Part shown: positions 4,141 through 64,000 of the stretch, piece by piece
Layout: the number at the start of each line of letters is the position of its first letter
Numbering within the stretch: the first letter of the stretch is position 1
DNA from: an uncultured Candidatus Saccharibacteria bacterium
GTDB lineage: Bacteria > Patescibacteriota > Minisyncoccia > Phycocordibacterales > UBA918
Assembly: GCA_964402035.1 (NCBI GenBank)
Contig: CAYOAM010000001.1
Coordinates: 96,679 to 160,678, forward strand
Direction of reading: 5' to 3'
Length of the DNA: 64,000 nt
Program-made: the position numbers and the translations under genes
Notes under the pieces: generated by a model
The model's input: only the letters and a program-made list of their open reading frames with translations
Told to the model about the DNA's origin: nothing
Database searches by the model: none

Positions 4141-4835
4141 TGGAATGCTTCGACAAAGAATGAACAATTGTGCGGGTTGTGCGTGCCAATTTTTTCTTGT
4201 AGCGCATCACAGGCTTTCACTTGGCCACACATATAAATATCTGCGTCACTAAAATCTAATGTTGATACATGATCCTGAATATAGCCTTTCCATGCATAGT
4301 CTTGCGCAATTGGATTTGATACTACATAGGTGGCGGTTACTTTTGGGTTCTTTGCGAGTAGTTCAAAGTACTCTTTGTAGATTATGTCATCTTCTGCTCT
4401 ACTGCCGGTCACGATGACTATTTTTTCAACAACCGGATTATCTATGGCGTATGCAGCGATTGATTTTATAACACCGGCACCAATTCCGAAACCAAAAAGG
4501 AATAGGTTGGGTTTACTGAGTTTGTCTCCAGTATTGCTTCCAAATGGACCCATAACAGTTACCGAATTTCCTAGTATCGAGTCTTTCCAAAATTGAGGGG
4601 TAACCTTTCCTGTTGGTGTCAGACGGACTGCTATCGTAATTGTTTTTTGTTCAACATTTGCAGAGACAACTGAATATGCTCGTCGTAGTGTCTCACCTTC
4701 AATCGATATAAATAGATTGATGAATGATCCAGGCGGGCACTCAAACAGAGACTCAAGCGAGATCGTCACTTCTTTTGCTGTGGGTGATAGTGGTGTGACA
4801 CGCGTGATGGTACCACTGCTTTTAAATATCTTCAT
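4137..4835 (-). CDS. FNR-like FAD/NAD(P)-binding oxidoreductase (ferredoxin-reductase-type)
   Basis: RAYS (RxYS) FAD-binding motif, glycine-rich GFGIGAGV nucleotide-binding loop, and C-terminal CG motif (MCGQ). ATGA-coupled to the upstream heme membrane protein. Confidence 0.6.
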   Translation of the reverse strand: MKIFKSSGTITRVTPLSPTAKEVTISLESLFECPPGSFINLFISIEGETLRRAYSVVSANVEQKTITIAVRLTPTGKVTPQFWKDSILGNSVTVMGPFGSNTGDKLSKPNLFLFGFGIGAGVIKSIAAYAIDNPVVEKIVIVTGSRAEDDIIYKEYFELLAKNPKVTATYVVSNPIAQDYAWKGYIQDHVSTLDFSDADIYMCGQVKACDALQEKIGTHNPHNCSFFVEAFH

Positions 4836-5452
4836 ATATGTTGGGTGTTATGTTCATACCGTTTTAAGGTATTGATAGTAAAAGCCAAGATGGTTAGTGA
4901 AGCCACAATGTACATGTAGTAGGCTACGGTCATATCGTGGTAGGCGAGGTAGACAAAGAGCGCGCTTGCAAAGAAATATACATAGGAAAGTCTCTGTATT
5001 CGTTTCCACCACTTTCCCAAGATTCTTTTAGAGAAATTATTTGATGTTATAAGCAGTAGTAGGGCACTTATGTCTGCAAGGTGTGCGAGCAGTGCATACC
5101 CTTCGAGTGACCAATAGTGCCATGCAAGGACGCTACCAAAAAATCCACTTGGATCAATGATTATTTTTGCAAAGGTGAACGATATAACGATTGATGCTGA
5201 AAGTACCCCAACTCCTTTTCGTAGTATAACGAGCGGACGCACGACAGGGATGCTCGGCAACATATCTGCAAGTGGACGAATGGTCATCACAAACAGTGCT
5301 GCAATGTGTGCAATGCTATAGAGAGCTGTCGCATAGCGGTTTACGGAATCTGGGTAGAATACAATTAAGACAGGCAGCGTGCCCATAATTGTAAGTGAAA
5401 TCGCTAGAAATATTTTTTGTAGATAGCGGATTATGGTGAGGTATATTTTCAT
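4832..5452 (-). CDS. Ferric-reductase-like transmembrane (di-heme b) component, MsrQ/YedZ-like
   Basis: Six predicted TM helices with paired His residues spaced for heme ligation (HIAALFVM..., HYWSLEGYALLAH). Gene order is ApbE, then TM, then FNR. Confidence 0.5.
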   Translation of the reverse strand: MKIYLTIIRYLQKIFLAISLTIMGTLPVLIVFYPDSVNRYATALYSIAHIAALFVMTIRPLADMLPSIPVVRPLVILRKGVGVLSASIVISFTFAKIIIDPSGFFGSVLAWHYWSLEGYALLAHLADISALLLLITSNNFSKRILGKWWKRIQRLSYVYFFASALFVYLAYHDMTVAYYMYIVASLTILAFTINTLKRYEHNTQHI

Positions 5453-7275: not shown

Positions 7276-8979
7276 ATGAAAAAAGTAGTTTTTAGTGTTG
7301 CCATTATTTGTCTCGTCCTGGTCCTTCCTAAATGCTCTATAGCTGCAGGGAATCTCATTGGTAACCCATCTGTTGAACAAAAGACAGGGCCCGGTCCCAC
7401 TGACTGGTTACGCACAAAAAAGGGTAATAACGTCTCTGTGTTTGCCTATAAAACAGATGGTTATGGGGGTGGTAAAAGCCTCTATATTAACGTCACAAAG
7501 TACATAACAGGGGAGTCATACTGGTACTTTAAGGATGTGCCAGTTGTACCGAATGCTACGTATACGTATAGCGAATATTACAAGTCTTCGATGTCAACGA
7601 AGCTGTATGCGCGAGTGCGTACAGCAGCAGGTGTCGAGACGACGATATTTTTGAAAGACGTACCTGCGGCGTCTGCGTGGACGGAAGTTTCTGCAGAAAT
7701 AGCAACACCATCAGACGCACAATTAATTACTGTATATCATGCTGCCAGCGCGCTCGGCTTTCTACAGACCGACAATTTTTCTCTTAATGAAAAGATCGTG
7801 GTGCCACAACCCGAGCCACCAATTGATCCGCCCCCACCGCAGGGTTCCCCTGACAATCCTATACCGAACCCTTCGGTTGAAGAAGTTTCAGATTCGGTAC
7901 CTACATTGCCGGCTCATTGGACGAAAGTAAAAACAGGAAACAACAATGCAGTGTTTACCTATCAAAACACCGGGCACACAGGAGAGCGGAGTTTGAAAGT
8001 GGCGATAACCCGGTATACGAGTGGGCTCGCGTATTTTGCATTTGATACGGCACCCGTCACTGGGGGTACAACATACGACTACTCTTTTTTCCAAAAGTCA
8101 GATGTGTATACAGAAGTTGATGCAGCGATCACGCTATCGAGCGGGGAAGTAGTATATCAATACCTCGGTGTTACATTTCCATCATCTGATTGGACAAAGT
8201 TTTCCACGAGGATTCGTATGCCCGAAGGGGCGGTACATGTCTCGATATACAACATGCTCTATTCAAAGGGGTATTTGGTGAGCGACGACTTTGCACTGAC
8301 TCCCGTACAGGTCGTACCTCTTGCACGACCACTCGTCTCGGTCACCTTCGATGACTTTTTTGATGCCCTCTACGACACGGTCTATCCCATGATGCAAGAA
8401 CATGGCTTTGCAGGGACGGCATACCTCCTGTCACAAGATCTCGGGAAGTCAGAAACGTTGACGCCAGACAAGATCATCGAAATGTCGCATCATGGTTTTG
8501 AGATTGGTGGTCATACCGTGACCCATGCACATTTACCATTTATCACTCCCCAAGAAGTCGACTATGAATTAGCACAATCAAAAACGGACATAGCAGCTTT
8601 TACTGGTATTACTCCAATAAACTTTGCTTCACCGTATGGTGAGTACAATGATGCAGTAAAAGAACAGATCAAACAGCAGTATCGCTCGCACCGGTCGGTT
8701 GATGTCGGCTATAACACCAAGGACAATTTTGATATGTACAACATCAAAGCAATGAGTACGATTAACACGACGACTCCTGAGACCGTGCTTGAGTGGGTGG
8801 ATGCTGCTATTGCGGATCGTGGGTGGCTTGTGCTCGTTTACCATGACATTATCGATAATGGGGCTACGTTTACCAATACTCCAGCACACCTTCAAGCTGT
8901 GCTCGACGGTATAGCTTCGCGCGGTGTTACGGTAAAGACCGTGGATAAAGCACTTGATGAGATTGTTCCGCAGATATAG
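7276..8979 (+). CDS. Secreted polysaccharide deacetylase (CE4/NodB domain) with two N-terminal beta-sandwich (CBM-like) repeats
   Basis: Signal peptide. Two about 170-aa repeats, each starting NLIGNPSVEQ / PNPSVEE. NodB motifs TFDD and HTVTHAHL in the C-terminal domain. Confidence 0.8.
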   Translation: MKKVVFSVAIICLVLVLPKCSIAAGNLIGNPSVEQKTGPGPTDWLRTKKGNNVSVFAYKTDGYGGGKSLYINVTKYITGESYWYFKDVPVVPNATYTYSEYYKSSMSTKLYARVRTAAGVETTIFLKDVPAASAWTEVSAEIATPSDAQLITVYHAASALGFLQTDNFSLNEKIVVPQPEPPIDPPPPQGSPDNPIPNPSVEEVSDSVPTLPAHWTKVKTGNNNAVFTYQNTGHTGERSLKVAITRYTSGLAYFAFDTAPVTGGTTYDYSFFQKSDVYTEVDAAITLSSGEVVYQYLGVTFPSSDWTKFSTRIRMPEGAVHVSIYNMLYSKGYLVSDDFALTPVQVVPLARPLVSVTFDDFFDALYDTVYPMMQEHGFAGTAYLLSQDLGKSETLTPDKIIEMSHHGFEIGGHTVTHAHLPFITPQEVDYELAQSKTDIAAFTGITPINFASPYGEYNDAVKEQIKQQYRSHRSVDVGYNTKDNFDMYNIKAMSTINTTTPETVLEWVDAAIADRGWLVLVYHDIIDNGATFTNTPAHLQAVLDGIASRGVTVKTVDKALDEIVPQI

Positions 8980-9019
8980 CTTTAGATCGTTTTCTGTATG
9001 TTTTAAGGTAGAATAGAGT

Positions 9020-9577
9020 ATGAAAAACATATTACTCATAGTTGTTCTTGTTGGATTAGGGGTCATTATTGGGTATCGCTATGGTGCGGGGCGAGGCGTA
9101 GCTGTGTCAGATACTCAACTTACTCCGGCCAATACTTCATCTGAAACTGCAACATCGACAACAAAACCACGACAGACCGTGACGACATCTGTCCCGATAG
9201 GTAAGGTACTCGATCTACATCAAAAGGGATTGACTATTGTGCCTGCCGATATTTTTAATAAAACAGATATAGAAGAGTTGGATTTATCGGACAATAACCT
9301 TTCTGGAACATTGCCTGCAGAAGTTCGTCATTTACAGAATCTCAAGGTCTTAGACCTGAGCAACAATAACTTCACTGGCGTGCCGGCTGAAGTGGGTCAG
9401 CTTAAAGACTTGCAGCTTTTGAATCTTGCAAACAATAAGATCACCGGTCTTCCGCATGAAATTGGAAATCTAAAAAAATTACAAGTTCTGGATCTCTCTG
9501 GCAATGAGTATTCTGTAGTAGATCTGGAGGTAATAAAGAAAGCTTTGCCACCTAATGTGCTCATAAAGACGCGATAA
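9020..9577 (+). CDS. Leucine-rich-repeat surface protein with N-terminal membrane anchor
   Basis: Signal-anchor helix, then four consecutive LxxLxLxxNxL repeats (LDLSDNNLSG, LDLSNNNFTG, LNLANNKITG, LDLSGNEY). Confidence 0.75.
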   Translation: MKNILLIVVLVGLGVIIGYRYGAGRGVAVSDTQLTPANTSSETATSTTKPRQTVTTSVPIGKVLDLHQKGLTIVPADIFNKTDIEELDLSDNNLSGTLPAEVRHLQNLKVLDLSNNNFTGVPAEVGQLKDLQLLNLANNKITGLPHEIGNLKKLQVLDLSGNEYSVVDLEVIKKALPPNVLIKTR

Positions 9578-9614: not shown

Positions 9615-10118
9615 ATGGATACACTTTCACATGGGCTCTATGGTGGTATCGCATTTGGTCGTACGTCGAAAATCCGCTATGGGATTGCATTTCTCTTTGG
9701 CATTATGCCGGACATGCTTTCGTTTGGGATACTGTTTGCTCTTACCATCCTTGGCTTTGTGTCAGGTCCAGAGTTTGCTTCGGGTCCGCCACCGATGTCA
9801 TCTATTCCCGAGTATGTACATCATCTCTACAACATCACGCATAGTTTTTTTGTCGCTGGGGCAGTCATCGCTCTTGTGTGGTGGTGGCATGAGGCACCGC
9901 TCATGGAAATGTTTGCGTGGCCACTCCATATACTGGTTGATATCCCAACGCATTCGACAAAATTTTTTGCGACACCATTTCTCTGGCCAGTGTCTGACTT
10001 TAAAATTGACGGCGTGAGTTGGAGTCATCCATATATTTTTATTCCGAATGTTATTTTTTTGTTAGGTCTCCACTTATGGTTTTATTTTAAACGTAGAGGA
10101 CGACAACGTAGCGTATGA
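9615..10118 (+). CDS. Membrane-bound metal-dependent hydrolase, DUF457/YdjM-like
   Basis: Polytopic membrane protein with His/Asp cluster HILVDIPTH and an N-terminal MDTLSHGL motif resembling the DUF457 family. Family-level only. Confidence 0.45.
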   Translation: MDTLSHGLYGGIAFGRTSKIRYGIAFLFGIMPDMLSFGILFALTILGFVSGPEFASGPPPMSSIPEYVHHLYNITHSFFVAGAVIALVWWWHEAPLMEMFAWPLHILVDIPTHSTKFFATPFLWPVSDFKIDGVSWSHPYIFIPNVIFLLGLHLWFYFKRRGRQRSV

Positions 10119-14044: not shown

Positions 14045-14104
14045 ACCACTTTGAAGTCCGGCTTCCAAGTTAGAAAATCTTACTCGGGAGTTCAACTCCC
14101 AAGT
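14045..14104. repeat. Short palindromic hairpin repeats (two adjacent copies) of a local REP-like family
   Basis: TTGAAG-TCCGG-CTTCCAAG and CTCGGGAG-TTCAA-CTCCCAAG. Family consensus (C)TTGGRAG-5nt-CTYCCAAG. Confidence 0.5.
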
Positions 14105-14145: not shown

Positions 14146-14859
14146 ATGCATGCTCCAATATCTCCAAGAACATTACTTATCACGGGGCTTTTATTGGCTT
14201 TCTTCTCGGCGTTGCTCATGTTTGGGTATTCGTATCTGCTCAATTGTATCGTTACCTCGACAGATTTCTCTTTTGTAGATTACATGAGTTTTGTGTATGG
14301 GAAATCGATGCTCCCGCTTGCAATATTTATACTAATTGGAGTTATATGTGCGGTGGTGGGATACGTGTCGGGAGCATCAAATAAATGGCTCGCAGTTATG
14401 GTGGTGTTCTTAGCTATTTATCTAGTTTCTTCCATAACCTTATCTTTGCTTTCATTTTTTAGCCCACACAGTAGAGCGCCGACCGCAGCAATAAAAGCTG
14501 GTGTCTCTGCCCTTCGCGCACATGCAGAAGATTATTTTAATGTTCATGGAAACTATGGACCCTATGCGACGTCGTGCACACAATCCGGCTCTATGTTTGC
14601 AGAGACCGCTATGGTAGCAGGTATTACGAGAGCTGAGAAAAGTGCTAAGTTTAGCGCAGAGTGTTTTTCTGATGGAAAGACTTTTGCTGTCGCTGTCCCC
14701 ATTGCACCAGGACTTTATAAGGAACAAGGACTATTTTGTCCGCAAGTACCAGAAGTAGATCGTAGTGGTCTAGAACATTATTGTGTCGATAGCACAGGAT
14801 TCGCAGGTACTATCATGGGACCATTGACTTCGACGCAGTGTCCGGGAGTGCGACAGTGA
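14146..14859 (+). CDS. Polytopic membrane protein with a C-terminal pilin-like globular domain
   Basis: Four to five TM helices, then ...AIKAGVSALRAHAEDYF...HYCVDSTGFAG. The C-terminal CVDS motif is shared with the pilins at 29703 and 30573 (KWFCVDSTRNQ, RWCVDSKGNS). Confidence 0.5.
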   Translation: MHAPISPRTLLITGLLLAFFSALLMFGYSYLLNCIVTSTDFSFVDYMSFVYGKSMLPLAIFILIGVICAVVGYVSGASNKWLAVMVVFLAIYLVSSITLSLLSFFSPHSRAPTAAIKAGVSALRAHAEDYFNVHGNYGPYATSCTQSGSMFAETAMVAGITRAEKSAKFSAECFSDGKTFAVAVPIAPGLYKEQGLFCPQVPEVDRSGLEHYCVDSTGFAGTIMGPLTSTQCPGVRQ

Positions 14860-14865
14860 ATCACT

Positions 14866-14912
14866 TGGACTCAGAACTTGGAAGCCGGACTTCCAAGTGC
14901 TAGAAAATATTG
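14866..14912. repeat. Short palindromic hairpin repeat copy with TAGAAAAT tail
   Basis: TTGGAAG-CCGGA-CTTCCAAGTGCTAGAAAATAT. The CCAAGT..TAGAAAAT tail is a direct repeat of 14064-14082. Confidence 0.5.
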
Positions 14913-15865: not shown

Positions 15866-16004
15866 TGTGCACATGCGTTGTGACCGCACGTATTCTCTAG
15901 GTGATACAGTTGAAGTATTATCATCTTAGAAAAAATATATGGCCAAAGGAGTCACTCATAGAAAAGAAAAAAAGAAACCAAAAAAGAAGAAATAGTTAAA
16001 AGTA

Positions 16005-16040
16005 CAAACATAAAACCCCCGCGCATCGCGTGGGGGTTTT
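16005..16040. terminator. Bidirectional rho-independent terminator hairpin
   Basis: AAAACCCCCGCGCATCGCGTGGGGGTTTTATGTTTT: GC stem flanked by an A-run and a T-run. Confidence 0.6.
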
Positions 16041-16169
16041 ATGTTTTGAATTTCAAGAGAGACTATCTAGCAGGCTTGACCTTTTGTGTTTTGACATATA
16101 AAGATTTATATGGTTTGATGCTCGTGGCGAATCTGCCTATCGGTGGGTGCCATACGGAAGGAAGTTGTT

Positions 16170-26501: not shown

Positions 26502-27161
26502 CTAGTTAGCAGTGTTTTCTTTTTTTGCAAAATAGAGAAACAGTGCTCCACTTATGAGCATGACAGAACCTGCTATGGCGGGGATACCGATAGAAACCAG
26601 TAGTGACTTGTCTCCAAAATCAAAGCTCGCTCCAATAAGAACAAGTATTGATGAGGCTATCGCTGATAACGGCAAAAGAATACTGATAAAGGTGAGATAG
26701 GGAAGTTTTGTGAGTCCTGCGCCATATGAGAGGAGTTCGGGGACGGGGAAGAAGGTCATGCACGCAAAGAAAAATCCTTTTGGTGTGTTGATTTGCGCCA
26801 TAATTTTTGCGAGCATGCCGCCTTCCTTTTCTGCGATCATACGGAGGACTATTTTTTGTCCCAAAAATCTGCTCAACATAAATGCCGTCGTGTACCCGAC
26901 AAAATCAGCCAATACCACATAGAGGACACCGGGCCAAAATCCAAATACAATGCCAGCGAGCGGATATAGTGGTCCTCCAGAAATCGGTGCAATAACGATC
27001 GTGGAGACTTTGAGGAGGATAAATATAAGTGGTGCCCAAAAGCCTGCCTGCTCCACCCACGTTTTGAGCGCATTGATATCGATGATGAGTGACAGCAATA
27101 CGATAGCGACAATGGCGATACCGATGCCGAGTGGGTGGATTTCGGGAAGTTTTGGAAACAT
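26502..27161 (-). CDS. DedA/TVP38 family membrane protein
   Basis: Polytopic membrane protein with the DedA-type GYTTAFMLSRFLGQ motif. Start chosen at MFPKLPE. Confidence 0.65.
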   Translation of the reverse strand: MFPKLPEIHPLGIGIAIVAIVLLSLIIDINALKTWVEQAGFWAPLIFILLKVSTIVIAPISGGPLYPLAGIVFGFWPGVLYVVLADFVGYTTAFMLSRFLGQKIVLRMIAEKEGGMLAKIMAQINTPKGFFFACMTFFPVPELLSYGAGLTKLPYLTFISILLPLSAIASSILVLIGASFDFGDKSLLVSIGIPAIAGSVMLISGALFLYFAKKENTAN

Positions 27162-27206
27162 AGTGGCATTGTAGCAGTTTTTTAGAAGTACGGTATGTGG
27201 GCGTAA

Positions 27207-27420
27207 GGCAGAGGTTCTTTGTCTGCGGGAGACAGTGTAAGGACTTCCACTCCCACATGTTCCGAGCACCTACTTTTCTCTTTAGAAAAGTAGGTGCTCG
27301 GCCATTCCGCTCGAAAAACAATTTGTTTTGTGGAAAATATTATACAAAACAAATTGTTTTCCTGTGCGAGGGTCGTGAAAATCCTTACACTTTCTCCCTC
27401 CTACGCGGACGTCGCCAAAA
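27207..27420 (+). repeat. Structured intergenic repeat element, copy A (candidate ncRNA or MITE-like element)
   Basis: Closing stem GGGAGACAGTGTAAGG (27227-27242) pairs with CCTTACACTTTCTCCC (27383-27398). Internal perfect hairpins at 27264-27300 (15 bp) and 27315-27360 (17 bp). Conserved single-stranded blocks CTCCCACATGTTCC, GCCATTCCGCTCG and TCCTGTGCGAGGGTCG are shared with copy B. Confidence 0.55.
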
Positions 27421-27454
27421 AACACATCTCCCGTTCTGGGTGTAGAATACCCAT

Positions 27455-28600
27455 ATGGAACCACTAGCAAGTCGCATGCGGCCAACGTCACTTAAAGACT
27501 TTGTGGGGCAGGAGCATTTGGTGGGGGTGGGCAAACCACTCTTTGAAGCGATCAAAGGTAAGCATCTCTTTTCTTTTATCCTCTGGGGTCCTCCTGGTAC
27601 CGGGAAGACGACACTGGCACGTATTTATGCACAAGCGCTCAATGCTGAGTTTTATGAACTCTCGGCTGTGTCGGCAGGCAAGGAAGATGTTCGTGAGATT
27701 ATTAAAATGGGAACGTTGGGAAAACCGAAAGTATTATTTCTTGATGAGATCCATCGGTTTAATAAAGCACAGCAGGATTTCCTTTTACCTTATGTTGAGA
27801 TGGGTACACTCTCGCTCCTCGGTGCCACTACCGAAAATCCGTCTTTTGAAGTCATACCTGCACTACTTTCTCGTTGCAGGGTTTTTATTCTCAATTCTCT
27901 CACCGAGAAAAATATTCATACGATACTCAAGCGTACAAAGGTCAAGATTCCAAAAGATGCTGAGGCGTGGCTTACGCGTGTCGCTGATGGAGACGCACGC
28001 CAAGCACTCACGATTATAGACGCCGCACTTTCTCTCTATGGTGCCGTGACCTTAGAGACACTCAGGGAGGCAGTTCAATCGACACATATTCGGTACGATA
28101 AAAAAGGTGAGGAGCACTACAACACTATTTCTGCTTTTATAAAAAGCATGCGCGCAGGACACGCAGATGCTGCGCTCTACTATCTCGCACGAATGGTTGC
28201 CGCAGGCGGGGACCCCAAGTTTATTGCGCGTCGCATGGTCGTGTTTGCGAGCGAGGATGTGGGGCTTGCACAGCCGACAGCACTCGTAGTTGCAAACGAA
28301 GTTTTTCGAGCGGTCGAGATGATTGGGTATCCCGAATGTGCTATCAATCTTGCGCATGGTGTTGCGTATCTATCACAGTGTAAAAAAGATCGTTCCGCGT
28401 ATGATGCGTATCTTGCCGCGCGCGCAGATGTTGAGGCACATGGTGCGCTCCCCATACCAATGAAACTTCGCAACGCTCCAACAAAACTTATGAAAGTGGT
28501 GGGGTATGGTAAGGGATATGAAATGTATGATAGTGAGAGCTATCTACCAGAGAAATTGAAAGGGAAGAAGTATTTGCCACCGAAGGGATCGGGTGGCTGA
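27455..28600 (+). CDS. rarA: Replication-associated recombination protein A (RarA/MgsA AAA+ ATPase)
   Basis: Walker A GPPGTGKTT, Walker B FLDEIHRFNK, sensor and arginine-finger regions, and a C-terminal MgsA helical domain. Confidence 0.9.
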   Translation: MEPLASRMRPTSLKDFVGQEHLVGVGKPLFEAIKGKHLFSFILWGPPGTGKTTLARIYAQALNAEFYELSAVSAGKEDVREIIKMGTLGKPKVLFLDEIHRFNKAQQDFLLPYVEMGTLSLLGATTENPSFEVIPALLSRCRVFILNSLTEKNIHTILKRTKVKIPKDAEAWLTRVADGDARQALTIIDAALSLYGAVTLETLREAVQSTHIRYDKKGEEHYNTISAFIKSMRAGHADAALYYLARMVAAGGDPKFIARRMVVFASEDVGLAQPTALVVANEVFRAVEMIGYPECAINLAHGVAYLSQCKKDRSAYDAYLAARADVEAHGALPIPMKLRNAPTKLMKVVGYGKGYEMYDSESYLPEKLKGKKYLPPKGSGG

Positions 28601-28617
28601 TTCTGAGGAAGTAACAC

Positions 28618-28739
28618 GGCAGAGCTTTCTGCTCCCACATGTTCCCGGCCTTAAAAAAGTGCTGGGCCACTCCGCTCGGAAGGTAAAATTTTTAAAGAAA
28701 ATTTTACCTTCCTGTGAGAGGGTCGCCAAAAGCTCTGCC
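28618..28739 (+). repeat. Structured intergenic repeat element, copy B (same family as 27207-27420)
   Basis: Terminal inverted repeat GGCAGAGCTTT ... AAAGCTCTGCC. Internal 15-bp perfect hairpin GGAAGGTAAAATTTT/AAAATTTTACCTTCC. Same conserved blocks as copy A (CTCCCACATGTTCC, GCCACTCCGCTCG, TCCTGTGAGAGGGTCG), with different, compensatory stem sequences. Confidence 0.55.
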
Positions 28740-28820
28740 GCGCTACTTCTACTGTTACTTCTGGATTAGAAGCTTTACGCTTCTCCCGGCGATGGACATT
28801 TGGTGTATAATGAAACTTAT

Positions 28821-29558
28821 ATGGAACAGAATAAAAATAAAAAAGTGATGGTGGGGGTTGGGCTCGCAGTTGCATGTGTTGCGATTGCAGCATTTGTATA
28901 TTCGTCAAAAGTAGATGCTCCGACGGAGGTAATGGTTGATGGAACAGTGCAGGATCAGCGAGCTACCGCAAAAAAGGGCAACACACTTCGTGACCTTTTG
29001 GCGCTTGGTCAAAGTCAAAAGTGTACCTATAGCTCTACGATTGAAGGAACGACAAGCGATGGAACCATGTATATTTCAGGAGCAAAAATGCGCGGTGATT
29101 TTGCAACAAAGACAACCGTCAACGGTACGACCGTGTCGACTGAATCACACATGATCACCGATGGCAAAGAAATGCGTATGTGGACCGAGGGCGAGAGTAT
29201 GGGAATACTGATGGAAAATATCGACGCGCAAACGGATACCAAAAATCCAAATACGCCCGTGAAAAATGATATGGTCGACCTCGACACAGACATGAACTAC
29301 AACTGTGAGCCATGGACGGCACGCAGCTCGTTTTTTGAAGCACCAGGAACGGTGACGTTTCATTCAATGACCGATATGATGCAGATGAATATGCCGAAGA
29401 CAGCACCAGTCACGGATGTGGGTGGCGATGTAGGTATGGGAGCGGGGATGGAAGCGGGTGGAATGGCAGATATGAAAGCGATGCAGTGTCAGATGTGCGC
29501 TCAAGCTCCTGACGCAGCAAGTAAAGCGCAGTGTTTGAAAACCTTTGCGTGTGAATAA
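28821..29558 (+). CDS. Membrane-anchored hypothetical protein with Cys-rich C-terminus
   Basis: N-terminal TM helix and C-terminal MQCQMCAQAPDAASKAQCLKTFACE. No known domain. Confidence 0.4.
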   Translation: MEQNKNKKVMVGVGLAVACVAIAAFVYSSKVDAPTEVMVDGTVQDQRATAKKGNTLRDLLALGQSQKCTYSSTIEGTTSDGTMYISGAKMRGDFATKTTVNGTTVSTESHMITDGKEMRMWTEGESMGILMENIDAQTDTKNPNTPVKNDMVDLDTDMNYNCEPWTARSSFFEAPGTVTFHSMTDMMQMNMPKTAPVTDVGGDVGMGAGMEAGGMADMKAMQCQMCAQAPDAASKAQCLKTFACE

Positions 29559-29702
29559 ATACCCTGAAGTACAAGGGTGAGGTGCGATATCATGACGAGA
29601 AACAACATGCTCGGTAATTTTCTGTTCATATGAGTATGCTTGCTGTAAATAGAGAAGCCGGCTTTACTTTGGTTGGTATGTATGCAGTCCTGTTACAGCG
29701 CT

Positions 29703-30269
29703 ATGATAAAAACGCTTAGACAAAAGTTAGAAAAAGTCTTCGATAAAAAAAGCGAGGGGCAGGATGCTGGCTTCATGCTTACTGAGTTGTTGGTGGTGAT
29801 CGCGATTGTCACTATTTTGTCTTCAGTTGCGTATGCTGCGATTAGTGGTGCACGAGATAAGGTAAAGGATAAGGCGATTATGGCAACCATGCTGGGTATA
29901 CAACTTCGCGCCGCAGCGCTTTACGAAAAAAATGGATGTTACTTGACAACCAGCAGTTGTGCGCTTGTTTCGTCGGTAACATCAGTGGGATCGTATGCTG
30001 GTTTTCTTGATCGGTCTATATCAAAAGACCCAGATATAGCTAATGCGCTTATCTATGTTGATCAACAGACCAGGTTTTCGATGAGTGTACCGATTGTGGG
30101 TTTTTCTGGGGATTGGAAAAGATGGGTTGTGTCTGCTCCCTTAAGGAGTGATCGGACAAAATGGTTTTGCGTAGATAGTACCCGAAACCAACGAATCGTC
30201 AGCGTCCCACTAGGCTCTTTCCTAAATTATGGATTCAATACGATTTCTTTACGCTGTAGGGATTCATAA
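29703..30269 (+). CDS. Type IV pilin-like protein with long (about 23 aa) leader
   Basis: MIKTLRQKLEKVFDKKSEGQDAG|FMLTELLVVIAIV: G-1, F+1, E+5. C-terminal CVDS motif. Confidence 0.75.
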   Translation: MIKTLRQKLEKVFDKKSEGQDAGFMLTELLVVIAIVTILSSVAYAAISGARDKVKDKAIMATMLGIQLRAAALYEKNGCYLTTSSCALVSSVTSVGSYAGFLDRSISKDPDIANALIYVDQQTRFSMSVPIVGFSGDWKRWVVSAPLRSDRTKWFCVDSTRNQRIVSVPLGSFLNYGFNTISLRCRDS

Positions 30270-30572
30270 CCTACCGTCATTCGATGATTGTGAAAGTCCA
30301 AAGGTCAACTGCTGATAGCTATTAATTGAGTTGCGTTGATAGTCAGCACATTCAAGCAGAAGTTACTTTGTTTCGTTTCTGTCTAATCATAAACGTATGT
30401 TGGTATTTATAGAGTCAGCACAAGCTATTCAAGGATTGCTGCTTAAAGATTTTATGGAATATCATGTAGGTAATGATATTTCTTGAGGGGTAGTGTGTAC
30501 AGATCAAGTCTTTTTAGTTATTGCGTGCTAGTATTGAATTAGTAGGTTCGTATGCTGTCTTGGTACAGCGCT

Positions 30573-31223
30573 ATGATAAAAAAGATTAGACAAAAGTTAA
30601 AAAAATTATCAAAGAAAAAAGGTGAGGAGCAGGATACTGGCTTCACGCTTATTGAGATGTTGGTCGTGATCGCTATTATCGCTATCTTATCTTCGGTTGC
30701 GTATACTGCGGTTGGTAGCGCGCGTGCAAAAGCGACAGATAAGGCAATTATTGCGTCACTCGAAGGAATGAGACTGATAGCAAGATCAATATATGAAAAA
30801 AATGGGTGTTATGCCGCAAGCGTAGAAGCATGCACGGGCTTTTTGGAGCGTGGTGTACTTGTAACGATTGATGGACACGGAGCGTACGATTGTCGTAATG
30901 GCTCTACAATGTCGGCGTACGCAGGTACCCATTATTTTGATAGTGATCCAAAAATCAAAGCCGCATTAAGAGCAGTAGCAGATCATGTGGGCAATGTTCC
31001 GTATTCTGTGTCTTGCAAATCAAGCGTTGGTGGTGCAGATTGGGTTATTTCTGCTACTTTGAAATCTGATCCGTCTAAGCGATGGTGTGTGGATAGTAAA
31101 GGAAATAGCAGGCTCGTAACACCTGGTACGTTTGCTTATCCACCAATTCTTGCAATACCTCCTAGTGATTTTGGTTTTACAAATCCAGGGTTTGATGGAA
31201 TTTCGCATTGTAAAAGCAGTTAG
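30573..31223 (+). CDS. Type IV pilin-like protein, tandem paralog
   Basis: MIKKIRQKLKKLSKKKGEEQDTG|FTLIEMLVVIAII. Nucleotides around the start codon are near-identical to the upstream paralog. Confidence 0.75.
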   Translation: MIKKIRQKLKKLSKKKGEEQDTGFTLIEMLVVIAIIAILSSVAYTAVGSARAKATDKAIIASLEGMRLIARSIYEKNGCYAASVEACTGFLERGVLVTIDGHGAYDCRNGSTMSAYAGTHYFDSDPKIKAALRAVADHVGNVPYSVSCKSSVGGADWVISATLKSDPSKRWCVDSKGNSRLVTPGTFAYPPILAIPPSDFGFTNPGFDGISHCKSS

Positions 31224-40833: not shown

Positions 40834-40840
40834 TCTAGAG

Positions 40841-40880
40841 AAAATAGCCCCGACCTCAATGAGGTCGGGGCTATTTTCGT
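40841..40880 (+). terminator. Rho-independent terminator after cspA
   Basis: AAAATAGCCCCGACCTC-AAT-GAGGTCGGGGCTATTTT: 17-bp perfect stem plus T-run. Confidence 0.75.
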
Positions 40881-61200: not shown

Positions 61201-64000
61201 GCGTTTCGACAAGTACGCATACGGCAAGTGGTACCGTAGCCGCTTCCGCAGCGGTTTCATCAGAAAACAGAGCTGGTACCGAGGTAGCAATTAGTTCGCA
61301 TGCCCACACGTACGATCCCGTGATTGTGGCGACTTCAACATTACCTGGATATCGCCAATTGCGACTCATACAAAACAATAGTGCGGGTCAACCGGCATCT
61401 CTTCCTGCAGGTGTTGTCTTGATGTTTGACTCAACGGTACCTTCTGGGTGGGCACGGTACTCGCAACTTGATGATCGTTTCCCCTATGGAGAAAATACTA
61501 TATTGACCGCTGGAACGAGCACACATAGACACAGCGTAATAGGTACTACTACGGGTGCCAGTGGATCAACAGTTGATGGTCGTACCTTAGGTACGCAGGT
61601 AAAAAGTGCTTTAGCTGGTCACCAGCATATCGTCAATGGTACGACGACTGCATCGAGCAATGAACCTCCTTTTATTACGGTAATTTATGGCACAACCACC
61701 GTTGCAACGACGACACCCGTGAATGCCATCACGATGTGGACCGATACACCACCTGCGGGCTGGCTCAATCGTTCAGCGACGGCTGGTGATCCGTTCTATG
61801 ATGTGTACCCTAAAGGTTCTGCTTCCTACGGTTCAACGGGGGGGTCGTTGACACATAGTCATAGTGATCTTGTTATAACTTCCAGCACATCGACCGAAGG
61901 CTCTGTCTCGCGTGTCGGTACTGCTGGAACTCCTGCCACAAGTACACATGATGTAACGATCAGTAATATTGCGTACACAGACCACCAACCGCCATACGTA
62001 ACCGCTATTTTTGCAAAATATTTAGGCGCAAATCCAACATATACGCAACTCGCATACCGATGGTTTGCAAATCTGGCAACATCCACAACACCAACGGATG
62101 CTTGGCCTGCTGGGTCTGAAGACTTGATTACCAATGAACAAATTGGTGCAACAAATACACCGGTAAAGAGCGGTGATGTGGTGAGGTTGCGCATGCAAGT
62201 AGGCGTCTCGGTGTCAACATCGACGGCTGTTGCGTTTAAATTACAATTTGGTTCAACGACCGCAGAATGTAGCGCAATTACAACATGGACTGATGTGGGT
62301 GCTTCAACATCAACGGTGGAATGGCGTGGTTATGACAATGGTTCACTCTCAGATGGCGCCGTACTTTCTTCTTCAACAATACTTGGCACCGATACTCTAG
62401 AGTCCTATGAGGAAAATAATCCCTCGACTACGACTCCAAATGATATTGGTATTGGTGAAGAAGGGGAGTGGGATTTTGTATTAGAGCAAAACGGAGCATA
62501 TGAAGGTTCCACGTACTGTTTCCGTATGGTGAAATCAGATGGCACTGTATTTTTTGCCTATGACAATTATCCAAGTCTATGGACGAATGAGGCACCAGAT
62601 CTGCCGACTCAAGCAGTGCCATTTAATAATGAAAAAGTTTCATCAACGACCCCTCTCTTTGAGTTTTCTGGGGGTGACACGGAAAGTGACACACTCACGT
62701 ATCAGATACAGGTCGATGATGATTATGCTTTTACATCAGTCACAGTAGATAGGAATAGTGTTTCTCATGGATCCCAATTTGAAGACCTGACCTTGAGTTC
62801 AAATAAGGATCCGTTTCCTGCTGGGGATGATATTGAATTTCATCTGACGTCAGCACTAACTAACGGGACCACATATTACTGGCGCGTGCGTGCGAAAGAT
62901 CCTACAGGGTCAAATCAATGGGGAAGCTGGTCGACGATTCGCAGTTTTACCATCGACACGACCGTCACTATTTCAACCTGGCATCAGACCATGGAGGAGC
63001 AATTTGATACTGACACGCTCTATGGAACAGACGCTCTAGCGGCGGATACTGTAGAGCTTATTGTCGGATCAACAACAGGAACAACGACTTCCTCGGCCAT
63101 CACCTTCTCTGAAGGCTCGATCGGTAATGCGTGGGGGTCTCTTTCATTCAATGATACTGAAGCGACCGGTGATATAAAATATCATATTGAGTATTTTGAT
63201 AGTACGACGGCTACCTGGCAGTTGGTGCCTGATGGATCACTCTCGGGAAATGCCGCGGGCTTTGATGCAACACCCGTGAGTCTGTTAGGAGTTGATGTTG
63301 AGACGTACCCCATTATTCGGGTTGCTGCTGATTTTACCAATATTGCTGGAACACCCACATTGTCAGACTGGACCGTCGCATGGGGGTATCGTGTGGAAAC
63401 TCCAACAATAAACTCACTCTTTTCCCATGAAAAAACGGCTACGACGACACCAACATTTGAGTTTTACACAACCGATCCTCAGAATGACGATTTGCAGTAT
63501 GAATTTCAATGGTCAACAACGTCAGCTTTTACGTCATCAACGACGCGTACATCAGGTGTTGATTCAGGGTTTGTCAATATAACGACGGCGACAGATACAT
63601 CATCATTTATTTCTGGGGACATCATCCAGTTTACTATTCAACCAGCTGACGCACTCCAAAACAATCAAACATATTGGTGGCGCGTGCGCGCACGTGATCC
63701 TGCACCAGGAGCCAATGTGTATTCATTTTATACCGACGCTCGGAGTGTTACTGCTTCAACATCGGTCACGGTCTCGACATGGTTTCAGACAACAGTCGAA
63801 CAGTTTAGTGTCAATACCAATGTCGGTATTGGGTCAGTCAGTACCACAACCGCCACCGTTTCTACGACGACTGATGATGCCCTCGTTGCATATGCGGAGG
63901 GCGCTGTTACCACACCTCGCTATCGCACATGGGACGGGACGACATGGTCGGCCGAAGGTACCGCTGTTGATGTGGGAGCTACGATAAACTGGGTCGTGAC
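58269..64000 (+). CDS. Giant cell-surface protein (over 1900 aa within the window), 3'-truncated by the window edge
   Basis: By manual translation, one frame is open from 58233 to the window end (no + ORF with a stop is listed there). Signal anchor VVLLLCVSVVVLVCVSVVHG; Pro/Glu/Thr-rich spacer; beta-rich domains; triplicated His-motif repeat; two FN3-like repeats with YYWRVRAKDP / YWWRVRARDP. Start is ambiguous (GTG 58269, TTG 58275 or GTG 58287). Confidence 0.7.
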   Translation, partial: MVLTYIVPYINFLKRHTVVLLLCVSVVVLVCVSVVHGDETPYSLRTLYVFPSSVTTTSWVGVEKIYSQEYDDHALYQDFRKSGAAYLDTTPVYVVPAPVPESTTDTVGTDRTDAVSDPETSSTDAIDIQAPSSDSEISDAPIDAEVDAPVAPPVAPPSTSEDETSTPEPLPEAATEPAAQTESSEPPAVEPLTKAEGKWSLVFAQVFERALSVFASTETEITSSTSDPTQGSANVALPQDEPTSDIPTVVENELPVVPENVPDLSPIATSTSDVQTDAVESDSQTAEPSNDLAESVSPYFCEGQEGCAVSPIVFDGFALPELGSGEFIEDAQLRLSFAGKPKKDFAGEDQGLVIEYMLDGAWNEAGTVPLNEEVSNAINGGYYLFALPAIDSVARLSNLHVRVTYYGNPENLEGIYVDSLWLELGVQSIDEASLRAHVLPDALEELKKPAEHELLSTELDFTLDELPNFTLKYIEQRNAIIQFFRSIFADKIAEVTHVILVHEDFGDVGVEPELFMTDEGLWTIKIPESEREKMRPGLYSLQIEVAEGNALYRDSFEFQWGLLALNVNKSEYVVGETARISLAALSQNGNTICDASLSLYVIAPDNFIQKVPVVESGLCKGNNVVDVPDYAGTFVTSLPGTHTFYVERLDPSGDVIAHTEDTFEVVSDAPISIERSGPTRIYPVAPYTMSVTVSARAAFTGTFVDIAPHDYEISNTDAIITVEDDKKKLTWDIALLAGESKTFTYTFDSPDISPYLYMLGPASVLLDGDISTMSEATPTDRVEPQMTEEIPIFDDVASTSALDSVVPVEPLAEPTPVEQSNAENVDVPVTPLEPTLSVPTESENTVVAPSAETDTTPESAPLEAEVIPEDASLSETPPLILPSDTETLFQSTYVEEMGSTTGALVDAVDTGRDAVAVVRSFTEHRRWQIASDATGSMIVLWTDGASIPSGWTCISCNATQTAFQRFPKGGATYGTTGGVSTSTHTASGTVAASAAVSSENRAGTEVAISSHAHTYDPVIVATSTLPGYRQLRLIQNNSAGQPASLPAGVVLMFDSTVPSGWARYSQLDDRFPYGENTILTAGTSTHRHSVIGTTTGASGSTVDGRTLGTQVKSALAGHQHIVNGTTTASSNEPPFITVIYGTTTVATTTPVNAITMWTDTPPAGWLNRSATAGDPFYDVYPKGSASYGSTGGSLTHSHSDLVITSSTSTEGSVSRVGTAGTPATSTHDVTISNIAYTDHQPPYVTAIFAKYLGANPTYTQLAYRWFANLATSTTPTDAWPAGSEDLITNEQIGATNTPVKSGDVVRLRMQVGVSVSTSTAVAFKLQFGSTTAECSAITTWTDVGASTSTVEWRGYDNGSLSDGAVLSSSTILGTDTLESYEENNPSTTTPNDIGIGEEGEWDFVLEQNGAYEGSTYCFRMVKSDGTVFFAYDNYPSLWTNEAPDLPTQAVPFNNEKVSSTTPLFEFSGGDTESDTLTYQIQVDDDYAFTSVTVDRNSVSHGSQFEDLTLSSNKDPFPAGDDIEFHLTSALTNGTTYYWRVRAKDPTGSNQWGSWSTIRSFTIDTTVTISTWHQTMEEQFDTDTLYGTDALAADTVELIVGSTTGTTTSSAITFSEGSIGNAWGSLSFNDTEATGDIKYHIEYFDSTTATWQLVPDGSLSGNAAGFDATPVSLLGVDVETYPIIRVAADFTNIAGTPTLSDWTVAWGYRVETPTINSLFSHEKTATTTPTFEFYTTDPQNDDLQYEFQWSTTSAFTSSTTRTSGVDSGFVNITTATDTSSFISGDIIQFTIQPADALQNNQTYWWRVRARDPAPGANVYSFYTDARSVTASTSVTVSTWFQTTVEQFSVNTNVGIGSVSTTTATVSTTTDDALVAYAEGAVTTPRYRTWDGTTWSAEGTAVDVGATINWVV

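Follow-up and report, generated by a model that had tools for sequence, protein, structure and literature searches.

Two structured intergenic elements flank the gene rarA in a 64-kb stretch of bacterial DNA, which was analysed here as a whole (the window). Copy A lies upstream and copy B downstream of rarA, in the same orientation. Each is part of a repeat unit of ~220-260 bp, composed of the structured element, a TCTCCCG box, a -10 box (GGTGTAKAAT) and a leaderless start (ATATGGAAC). We interpret the two copies flanking rarA as the footprint of a local segmental duplication, not of two transpositions, which was demonstrated in part and is otherwise inferred from the sequence. As a tentative explanation, possible rather than probable, we propose that the element is a selectively maintained fold, that it would form a transcription boundary ahead of a leaderless promoter and that it stems from this duplicated module.

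Conserved blocks and duplication of the upstream module

Three sequence blocks are common to both copies: b1 (CTCCCACATGTTCC, exact matches at 27250 in copy A and 28632 in copy B), b2 (GCCAYTCCGCTCG, at 27301 and 28666) and b3 (TCCTGTGMGAGGGTCG, at 27360 and 28710), all on the plus strand. They are 14, 13 and 16 nt long, respectively, and 41 of their 43 positions (95%) were identical between the copies, without any indel. The block sets are co-linear, at 27250-27375 and 28632-28725, with long hairpins between the blocks. Block positions and order thus confirmed an earlier interpretation of this DNA (the sequence-only reading), which had described two copies with common blocks in the same orientation up- and downstream of rarA. 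No third site in the window held all three blocks in order, and a fuzzy search with three mismatches per block gave no other site with even two of the blocks together.

The same reading had set the extent of the repeat at 27207-27420 and 28618-28739, which proved too short. Homology continued to the TCTCCCG box, the -10 box and the start codon, and the downstream features had the same order in both copies: ACRCWTCTCCCG, GGTGTAKAAT (27439 and 28802) and ATATGGAAC (27453 and 28819). The alignment of the downstream flanks was better than all but 0.4% of shuffles (p = 0.004). Homology therefore continues, in the same order, into unstructured flanks, as in a segmental duplication of an upstream region. 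Further sites were sought in ~106 kb of the same genome, comprising the window (positions 118,481-182,480 of the 452,957-bp metagenomic contig NODE_5, ENA ERZ3430527) and 42 kb more (L014, L015 and L021, the last being 21 kb of this contig at 375-397 kb, ~250 kb away). On both strands of this DNA, GGTGTAnAAT and ATATGGAAC had two sites each and no other. The modules and the genes around them are the following:

26502-27162, minus strand: dedA/VTT-domain gene, divergent from rarA
27168-27176, minus strand: -10 box of dedA, TGCTACAAT (read on the minus strand), 6 nt before the ATG
27203-27461, plus strand: whole of module A, with the element, the TCTCCCG box, the -10 box of rarA and ATGGAAC
27439-27448, plus strand: -10 region of rarA, GGTGTAGAAT, 6 nt before the ATG, leaderless; ancestral, present in relatives without the element
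27455-28600, plus strand: rarA, 381 aa, in syntenic position in five distinct relatives
28611-28828, plus strand: whole of module B, with the element, the TCTCCCG box, the -10 box and the ATGGAAC of the next gene
28782-28788, plus strand: TCTCCCG box of module B, with its counterpart in A at 27427
28802-28811, plus strand: -10 region of the next gene, GGTGTATAAT, a copy of that of rarA; the 10-mer pattern occurs at these two places only in the ~106 kb
28822-29558, plus strand: gene after rarA, orthologous to the gene (229 aa) located behind rarA in the related locus L008

Because homology runs through to the start codons of rarA and of the next gene, the repeat is a copied upstream module and not a transposed miniature inverted-repeat transposable element (MITE). 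The promoter and start of rarA were also found in relatives without the element (GGTGTAGAAT...ATGGAACC in L010 and AGTGTAGAAT...ATGGAACC in L016). Since rarA has this promoter and start in element-free relatives too, it was unit A, with the promoter and the first two codons, that was copied behind rarA. The gene after rarA likely starts at the copied ATGGAAC (28822), instead of the called start at 28848.

Seven related loci were compared (L007, L008, L010, L016, L019, L022 and L023). L022 and L023 are nearly identical to L008, so the loci represent five distinct relatives. The synteny Pif1/dedA-rarA-(next gene)-BipA is common to these five, and the element was present in none of the seven loci. 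The spacer between dedA and rarA is only 73 nt long in L019. In L008, only 23 nt separate rarA from the gene following it, which is orthologous to the next gene of the window (E = 1e-34). With such short spacers at both sites in relatives, the module is lineage-specific.

We propose a single origin of the module in this lineage, where it would have appeared between the divergent promoters of dedA and rarA, in a spacer of ~70 nt. The unit, including the ancestral promoter and first two codons of rarA, would then have been copied into the short spacer behind rarA. Two routes are possible: module and rarA may have been duplicated in tandem, with the second rarA lost afterwards, or the module alone may have been copied and pasted. 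The module copy would now give the next gene its promoter and start, and the locus would show how a gene gains the promoter and start codon of its neighbour via local duplication. As in duplicated promoter regions, the -10 box, the ATG spacing and the first codons were copied along with the upstream DNA. Unlike in ordinary duplicated spacers, which decay uniformly, the folded part has kept its pairing and the 43-nt core, while the rest has decayed.

The region was 100% identical over 11 kb around the feature in the assembly of another run. A third assembly had a single-nucleotide polymorphism at 28604, outside the structured element. Agreement between independent assemblies from other samples shows that the region is not an assembly artefact. 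The closest RarA proteins had 79-82% identity, and the named ones belong to Patescibacteria, Parcubacteria or Paceibacterota. Judged by these proteins, the host organism is a Patescibacteria/Parcubacteria-type bacterium.

A common three-way-junction fold

RNAalifold on both copies, together with constrained folding, gave one shared three-way junction. It was within 0.8 kcal/mol (copy A) and 0.5 kcal/mol (copy B) of the minimum free energy (MFE) structure of each copy, and it was the DNA-parameter MFE structure of copy B. The closing stem leads to helix Pc (b1 C.CCC with b3 GGG..G) and then to the junction. There, an unpaired ACAUGUU, the hairpin hp1, an unpaired CCAY and helix Pb', stacked on the hairpin hp2, follow each other. 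Pb' pairs UCCGC of b2 with GUG.GA of b3, and its G.U pair is kept in both copies. Block b3 is the continuous strand of the junction. The parts of the two copies are listed below, all on the plus strand.

27207-27226, plus strand: outer 5' flank of copy A, GGCAGAGGTTCTTTGTCTGC, suggestive counterpart (p about 0.1) of the closing-stem 5' arm of copy B plus CTGC
27227-27242, plus strand: 5' arm of the inner closing stem P1' of copy A, GGGAGACAGTGTAAGG, partner of 27383-27398 (15/16 paired)
27250-27263, plus strand: block b1 of copy A, CTCCCACATGTTCC; its C.CCC forms helix Pc with the GGG..G of b3, and ACAUGUU stays unpaired as a junction strand
27262-27301, plus strand: hp1 of copy A, a perfect stem of 18 bp with a CTTT loop
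27301-27313, plus strand: block b2 of copy A, GCCATTCCGCTCG; its UCCGC forms helix Pb' with the GUG.GA of b3
27314-27361, plus strand: hp2 of copy A, 17-18 bp, perfect, A/T-rich
27360-27375, plus strand: block b3 of copy A, TCCTGTGCGAGGGTCG, which runs through the junction as its continuous 3' strand
27383-27398, plus strand: 3' arm of P1' of copy A, CCTTACACTTTCTCCC
27411-27433, plus strand: tail of copy A, GTCGCCAAAAAACACATCTCCCG, matching GTCGCCAAAA of copy B (28722) and the TCTCCCG box
28618-28628, plus strand: closing-stem 5' arm of copy B, GGCAGAGCTTT, partner of 28729-28739
28632-28645, plus strand: block b1 of copy B
28644-28666, plus strand: hp1 of copy B, a stem of 9 bp that includes one G.U pair and has one bulged U, base homologous to hp1 of copy A
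28666-28678, plus strand: block b2 of copy B, GCCACTCCGCTCG
28678-28712, plus strand: hp2 of copy B, 15-16 bp, perfect
28710-28725, plus strand: block b3 of copy B, TCCTGTGAGAGGGTCG
28729-28749, plus strand: closing-stem 3' arm of copy B, AAAGCTCTGCC(GCGCTACTTC)

Both copies folded far more stably than shuffled sequences, with z-scores of -12.2 (copy A) and -8.4 (copy B) for RNA folding, and of -14.4 and -7.8 for DNA folding. Our own column-consistent structural alignment had 98.6% of its cells paired, with 8 double-sided changes and none broken in the shared columns; RNAalifold counted 10 double-sided pair changes. The pair just outside the blocks was compensatory, being A-U in copy A (27249-27376) and G-C in copy B (28631-28726). 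The sole variable base of b3 is a bulge. That of b2 is unpaired in the preferred fold and changes a C-G to a U.G pair only in an alternative extended b2-b3 helix. The counted columns of hp1 comprised one clear compensatory pair, a second one if a bulge is allowed, one wobble and one bulge. In hp2, the first 7 aligned pairs are common to the copies and include 3 double changes, mostly of the transition type.

According to the sequence-only reading, each helix was a perfect stem, the helices of the two copies were entirely different in sequence, and the hairpins measured 15 and 17 bp in A and 15 bp in B. Perfect stems were found for both hairpins of copy A and for hp2 of copy B, but not for the closing stem of A, with 15/16 paired and one C.T mismatch, nor for hp1 of B, with its G.U pair and bulge. 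The hairpins hp1 and hp2 measured 18 and 17-18 bp in A, and 9 and 15-16 bp in B. The long hairpins do differ in sequence and yet pair. The base of hp1, on the other hand, is homologous between the copies (CCGAGCACCT/AGGTGCTCGG in A vs CCCGGC-CTT/AAGTGCTGGG in B).

The outer parts may be related as well. The closing stem of B (GGCAGAGCTTT) resembles the outer flank of A at 27207 (GGCAGAGGTTCTTTG), and GTCGCCAAAA is common to both copies (27411 in A, 28722 in B). The resemblance of the outer flanks of A (GGCAGAGG... at 27207, GTCGCCAAAA... at 27411) to the closing stem and tail of B is suggestive, with p about 0.1 and 0.025, respectively. The closing stem of B can be extended to 28608 / 28749, with two A.C mismatches. 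Copy A has an extra inner stem relative to B, the arms of which are bounded by short direct repeats.

Other readings of the blocks were rejected. In A as in B, a helix Pa between b1 (CTCCCACA) and b3 (TGTGMGAG) was less stable than the alternatives by ~6 kcal/mol. As protein-coding sequence, the blocks have different frames in A and B, with a stop after 15 codons in B. A LexA/Cheo box was matched by a half-site only.

Position relative to transcription

A TAnnnT box was found 4-12 nt before the start codon in 27 of 65 genes (L004, L014 and L021), and a Shine-Dalgarno-like sequence in only 4 of the same 65. The genes dedA, rarA and the next gene all fit the TAnnnT-box pattern. With these boxes close to the starts and few Shine-Dalgarno sequences, the mRNAs are probably leaderless, which places neither copy in a 5' untranslated region (UTR). 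The location is thus not that of a riboswitch; the distance from the -10 boxes to the ATGs is 6-10 nt (transcription starts inferred).

Copy A fills the space between the divergent promoters of dedA and rarA. Copy B is located behind the rarA stop codon and ahead of the next promoter and should therefore be transcribed as the 3' end of rarA. Consensus scans showed no promoter-like box common to the upstream sequences of both copies on either strand, and no T-tract terminator. A shared minus-strand promoter was considered and rejected, as it was predicted in B only. GC skew was uniformly positive. The plus strand is the gene strand and, from GC skew and gene orientation, probably also the lagging-strand template, and it would be the working strand of the element.

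Ordinary intrinsic terminators, compound by chance, would fit the strong stems and the position of copy B directly after the rarA stop codon, but are a very improbable explanation. No T-run is present behind either element, where the tails read CTCCCTCCTACG and GCCGCGCTACTT, and the terminator scan of the plus strand listed nothing at either, in agreement with the earlier view that these are not simple terminators. Copy A does not follow a plus-strand gene, and a conserved non-stem core of 43 nt is no terminator feature. The other intergenic hairpins of this genome are single stem-loops, two of which (15996-16056 and 40840-40878) have classic A/T-tract terminator flanks.

Searches for further copies and known families

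No search for more copies, whether in the ~106 kb, the relatives or the collections, gave a third copy. Blastn-short and fuzzy block searches of the window, both contig extensions, L021 and all related loci returned only the two copies. The covariance model R1, run on the same DNA (filters off for the window), retrieved the two copies and plain hairpins, which scored alike on both strands. Exact-block scans gave only chance matches within coding sequences of unrelated high-GC organisms, for blocks 1 and 2 in 185,579 GTDB species representatives, for blocks 2 and 3 in JGI metagenome contigs and for three exact patterns in IMG/VR; these collections do not include the source genome, so that the scans have no positive control, and diverged cores would be missed. 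Blastn of both copies against plasmids and phages gave nothing relevant. With no further copy in any searched collection, there is no RNA family to model, and the element pair is an orphan without known relative.

Rfam 15 gave 0 matches to any family at the gathering threshold in the whole window. At E <= 10, only miRNA-type hairpin noise, well below threshold, appeared in 27100-28900. The elements were thus placed in no family, neither as terminators nor otherwise. A tRNA- or tmRNA-like fold was rejected, with 0 genes called by ARAGORN in the window, and neither tRNA, rRNA nor any Rfam family was found in the 64 kb by Rfam and ARAGORN together.

A novel structured non-coding RNA is an unlikely explanation. 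The element would be a self-cleaving ribozyme, a protein-binding RNA or a pair of sibling small RNAs (sRNAs), with the junction core as the active part and copy B processed from the rarA 3' UTR. The conserved core, the stems that change and yet pair, the G.U pair kept in Pb' on the plus strand, the orientation of both copies like that of the genes and the co-transcription of copy B with rarA, expected from its position, all agree with such an RNA. In small known ribozymes, conservation is centred on the junction, and they often adjoin genes. However, there was no Rfam family even at E <= 10 and no relative in the searched collections, no promoter was recognisable at copy A, a T-tract terminator is lacking, and neither copy is within a 5' UTR. 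Very long perfect stems are also atypical of catalytic or ligand-binding RNAs.

Like the hammerhead, twister-sister, TPP and purine RNAs, the element has three helices around a sequence-conserved junction, and the helices vary in sequence and length. Unlike these three-way-junction ribozymes and riboswitches, it has no Rfam match, and no known core corresponds to its two invariant helices and junction strands of 7, 4 and 0 nt. Its stems are perfect over 15-18 bp, and it is located upstream of a transcription start, not in a 5' UTR. More doubtful still is that the two copies are the first members of a novel class of structured nucleic acids in Patescibacteria, a three-way junction with an invariant 43-nt core that works as plus-strand RNA or as single-stranded DNA of the lagging template. 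Such a class, coupled to leaderless promoters without 5' UTR, might act as a ribozyme, as a signal for processing or as a switch bound by protein.

Mobile elements and recombination sites

A MITE-like repeat had also been suggested, that is, a non-autonomous mobile element of the MITE or repetitive extragenic palindromic (REP) type with two independent intergenic insertions. We consider this distinctly unlikely. It would agree with both copies being insertions relative to the orthologous spacers, with their intergenic position outside transcription units, with the nested palindromic architecture and with outer flanks of A that look like the ends of a B-like copy. However, instead of dispersed copies only two were found in the ~106 kb, and these are adjacent. 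The outermost stems are the least conserved part, in place of conserved terminal inverted repeats, and no flanking direct repeat, and thus no target-site duplication, was found at either copy.

A REP/REPIN system combines a conserved palindrome of 20-40 nt in high copy number with a gene for a REP-associated tyrosine transposase (RAYT); here, the copies number only two and their hairpins differ. No transposase or RAYT gene was found in the surveyed DNA: the genes called in L004, L014, L015 and L021 and the additional open reading frames (ORFs) of the window included neither a cognate nor a Y1 transposase, and neither L021 nor the ~85 kb around the locus codes for a recombinase, transposase or reverse transcriptase. 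Above all, copy B carries the promoter and start of rarA, which is not expected of transposition.

Repeat families such as ERIC/IRU, BOX, bcr1-type and RPE have tens to hundreds of dispersed copies, which are alike along their whole length. The elements resemble these families in being 100-250 bp long, intergenic and lineage-specific, in their nested inverted repeats and strong predicted fold, and in the internal insertions by which copies differ. They differ from them in having two adjacent copies with only the junction core conserved, one of which (B) holds the promoter and start of a gene.

Direct repeats that bracket one gene could also be recombination sites, attC-like or otherwise folded, which would make rarA an excisable cassette. 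As in integron attC sites, a folded single-strand site would keep structure over sequence, its copies bracket a single gene in the same orientation, and the plus strand is the probable lagging-strand template, on which such sites fold. This explanation, also raised by the sequence-only reading, is hardly credible. The gene rarA is in its ancestral syntenic place and has its own ancestral -10 box, unlike a promoterless attC cassette, and the direct-repeat layout is already explained by the segmental duplication. The blocks hold GTTCC, not GTTRRRY, and no complementary RYYYAAC, so that the R''/R' boxes are missing (no dedicated attC model was run). No IntI gene, and no integrase or other tyrosine recombinase, was found in the ~85 kb. 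Finally, the fold is a three-way junction and not a bulged hairpin.

Possible selection on the fold

The neutral parts of the two units have diverged past alignment, with several indels, while the 43-nt core is 95% identical and the three helices still pair. Since core and pairing were kept, the latter through double-sided changes, as the rest diverged, the fold appears to be maintained on the plus strand, which suggests constraint on core and pairing. In the explanation proposed here, a folded single strand with a sequence-specific core would be recognised by some factor. Copy B would stop or process the rarA transcript ahead of the next promoter, and copy A would insulate the rarA promoter against transcription that enters from the side of dedA.

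Several points weigh against a maintained plus-strand fold. Structure-based counts rest on n = 2 sequences, copy A and copy B, which makes the paired changes descriptive and anecdotal rather than a statistical test of covariation, and the structure was partly derived from the same two sequences on which it is judged. The reverse strands of both copies fold about equally well. Strand evidence is mixed: the G.U pairs in Pb' and in hp1 of B favour the plus strand, and the two A.C mismatches in the outer stem of B favour the minus strand. Copy A follows no plus-strand gene and has no recognisable promoter, which leaves an RNA role of this copy unsupported. No factor binding the core was identified, and the absence of homologs is unusual for a functional element. 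In addition, replication template switching can make and keep long perfect stems without selection (PMC8794818). The earlier argument that conserved loops with covarying stems mark a selected RNA stands as to the pattern (8-10 double changes, none broken), but is weakened as to the selected RNA by the two sequences, the lack of a further copy, the similar folding of both strands and the position of the copies outside 5' UTRs.

It is likewise unlikely, but conceivable, that the element has no function. The module would have been duplicated, its hairpins turned over via template switching, slippage and short-repeat deletions, and the blocks would be the slow non-palindromic parts. The unit was indeed copied as a segment with its promoter. 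The extra arms of A vs B are bounded by direct repeats (TTCCAC/TCCCAC and GGGTCG/GGACGTCG), the stems are near-perfect on both strands, and the template-switch mechanism is documented (PMC8794818). However, the flanks outside the promoter boxes are unalignable, in contrast to the core with its 41/43 identity and no indel, which argues for constraint on the core. Moreover, at least 3 double changes have left hp2 perfectly paired in A and B alike.

Should selection on the fold be real, the element would be a rare structured regulatory or boundary element in an ultra-small, leaderless genome that lacks Shine-Dalgarno sequences. Such genomes offer no 5' UTR to host control of the riboswitch type. 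If it is not selected, the locus is a clean natural case of palindromes that stayed perfect despite sequence turnover. It would then be a caution that conserved loops and covarying stems in two paralogs are no proof of an RNA.

Spacers around rarA in the relatives

The spacer upstream of rarA was a hot spot of lineage-specific content among L007, L008, L010, L016 and L019. It contained sRNA-like units and MazE in L007, a small ORF and hairpins in L008, ~600 nt in L010, an ORF for a 73-aa membrane protein in L016, and nothing in L019 (73 nt). In L007 (GCA_039740995.1), two units at 8850-9230 and 9650-9960 flank the MazE-like gene. They share a promoter-like head (AAAAAASCCTTATTTTTCAACGTATTTT...CTTGACAAAA), followed by 200-300 nt of non-coding sequence and a strong T-tract terminator. 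These units look like paralogous sRNA genes; Rfam gave no match at E <= 0.1.

Between Pif1 and rarA of L008 lies a hairpin, CCGAGCACCTTCCTT/AAGGAAGGTGCTCGG (4519-4549, identical in L022 and L023), which is the T-tract terminator of a small minus-strand ORF. Its basal 10 bp, CCGAGCACCT, are the same as in hp1 of copy A. Similarity around this hairpin was not significant, and the shared 10 bp were therefore treated as possibly coincidental. RarA of the L008 clade was called as 403 aa with a start at 4882; a likelier start is ~4936, at ATGGAACC, 7 nt after a TACAAT box. L008 also has an A/T-rich element of 113 nt (8759-8871) between BipA and a cold-shock gene, with a perfect inverted repeat of ~30 bp (GTACTGAGAAGTTATAAATTTTTCAAAAAAG...). 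Its sequence is unrelated to the rarA elements.

Other repeats and genes in the window

A second gene of the window is flanked by copies of an intergenic hairpin module. Two 25-nt hairpin copies (ACTTGGAAGCCGGACTTCCAAGT-like, 96% complementary to each other), at 14047-14078 and 14875-14907 and each followed by TAGAAAAT, bracket one ORF of 237 aa (14146-14859) without Pfam match. A direct repeat of 216 nt (29669-29884 and 30539-30754, with 79% identity) spans the 5' portions of two neighbouring paralogous genes, of which the second (30552-31223) has an N_methyl pilin-type signal and the first (29673-30269) no recorded Pfam match. A giant gene of 5,621 codons (DUF2341) runs from ~58290 past the window end at 64000 (L015 11663 onward).

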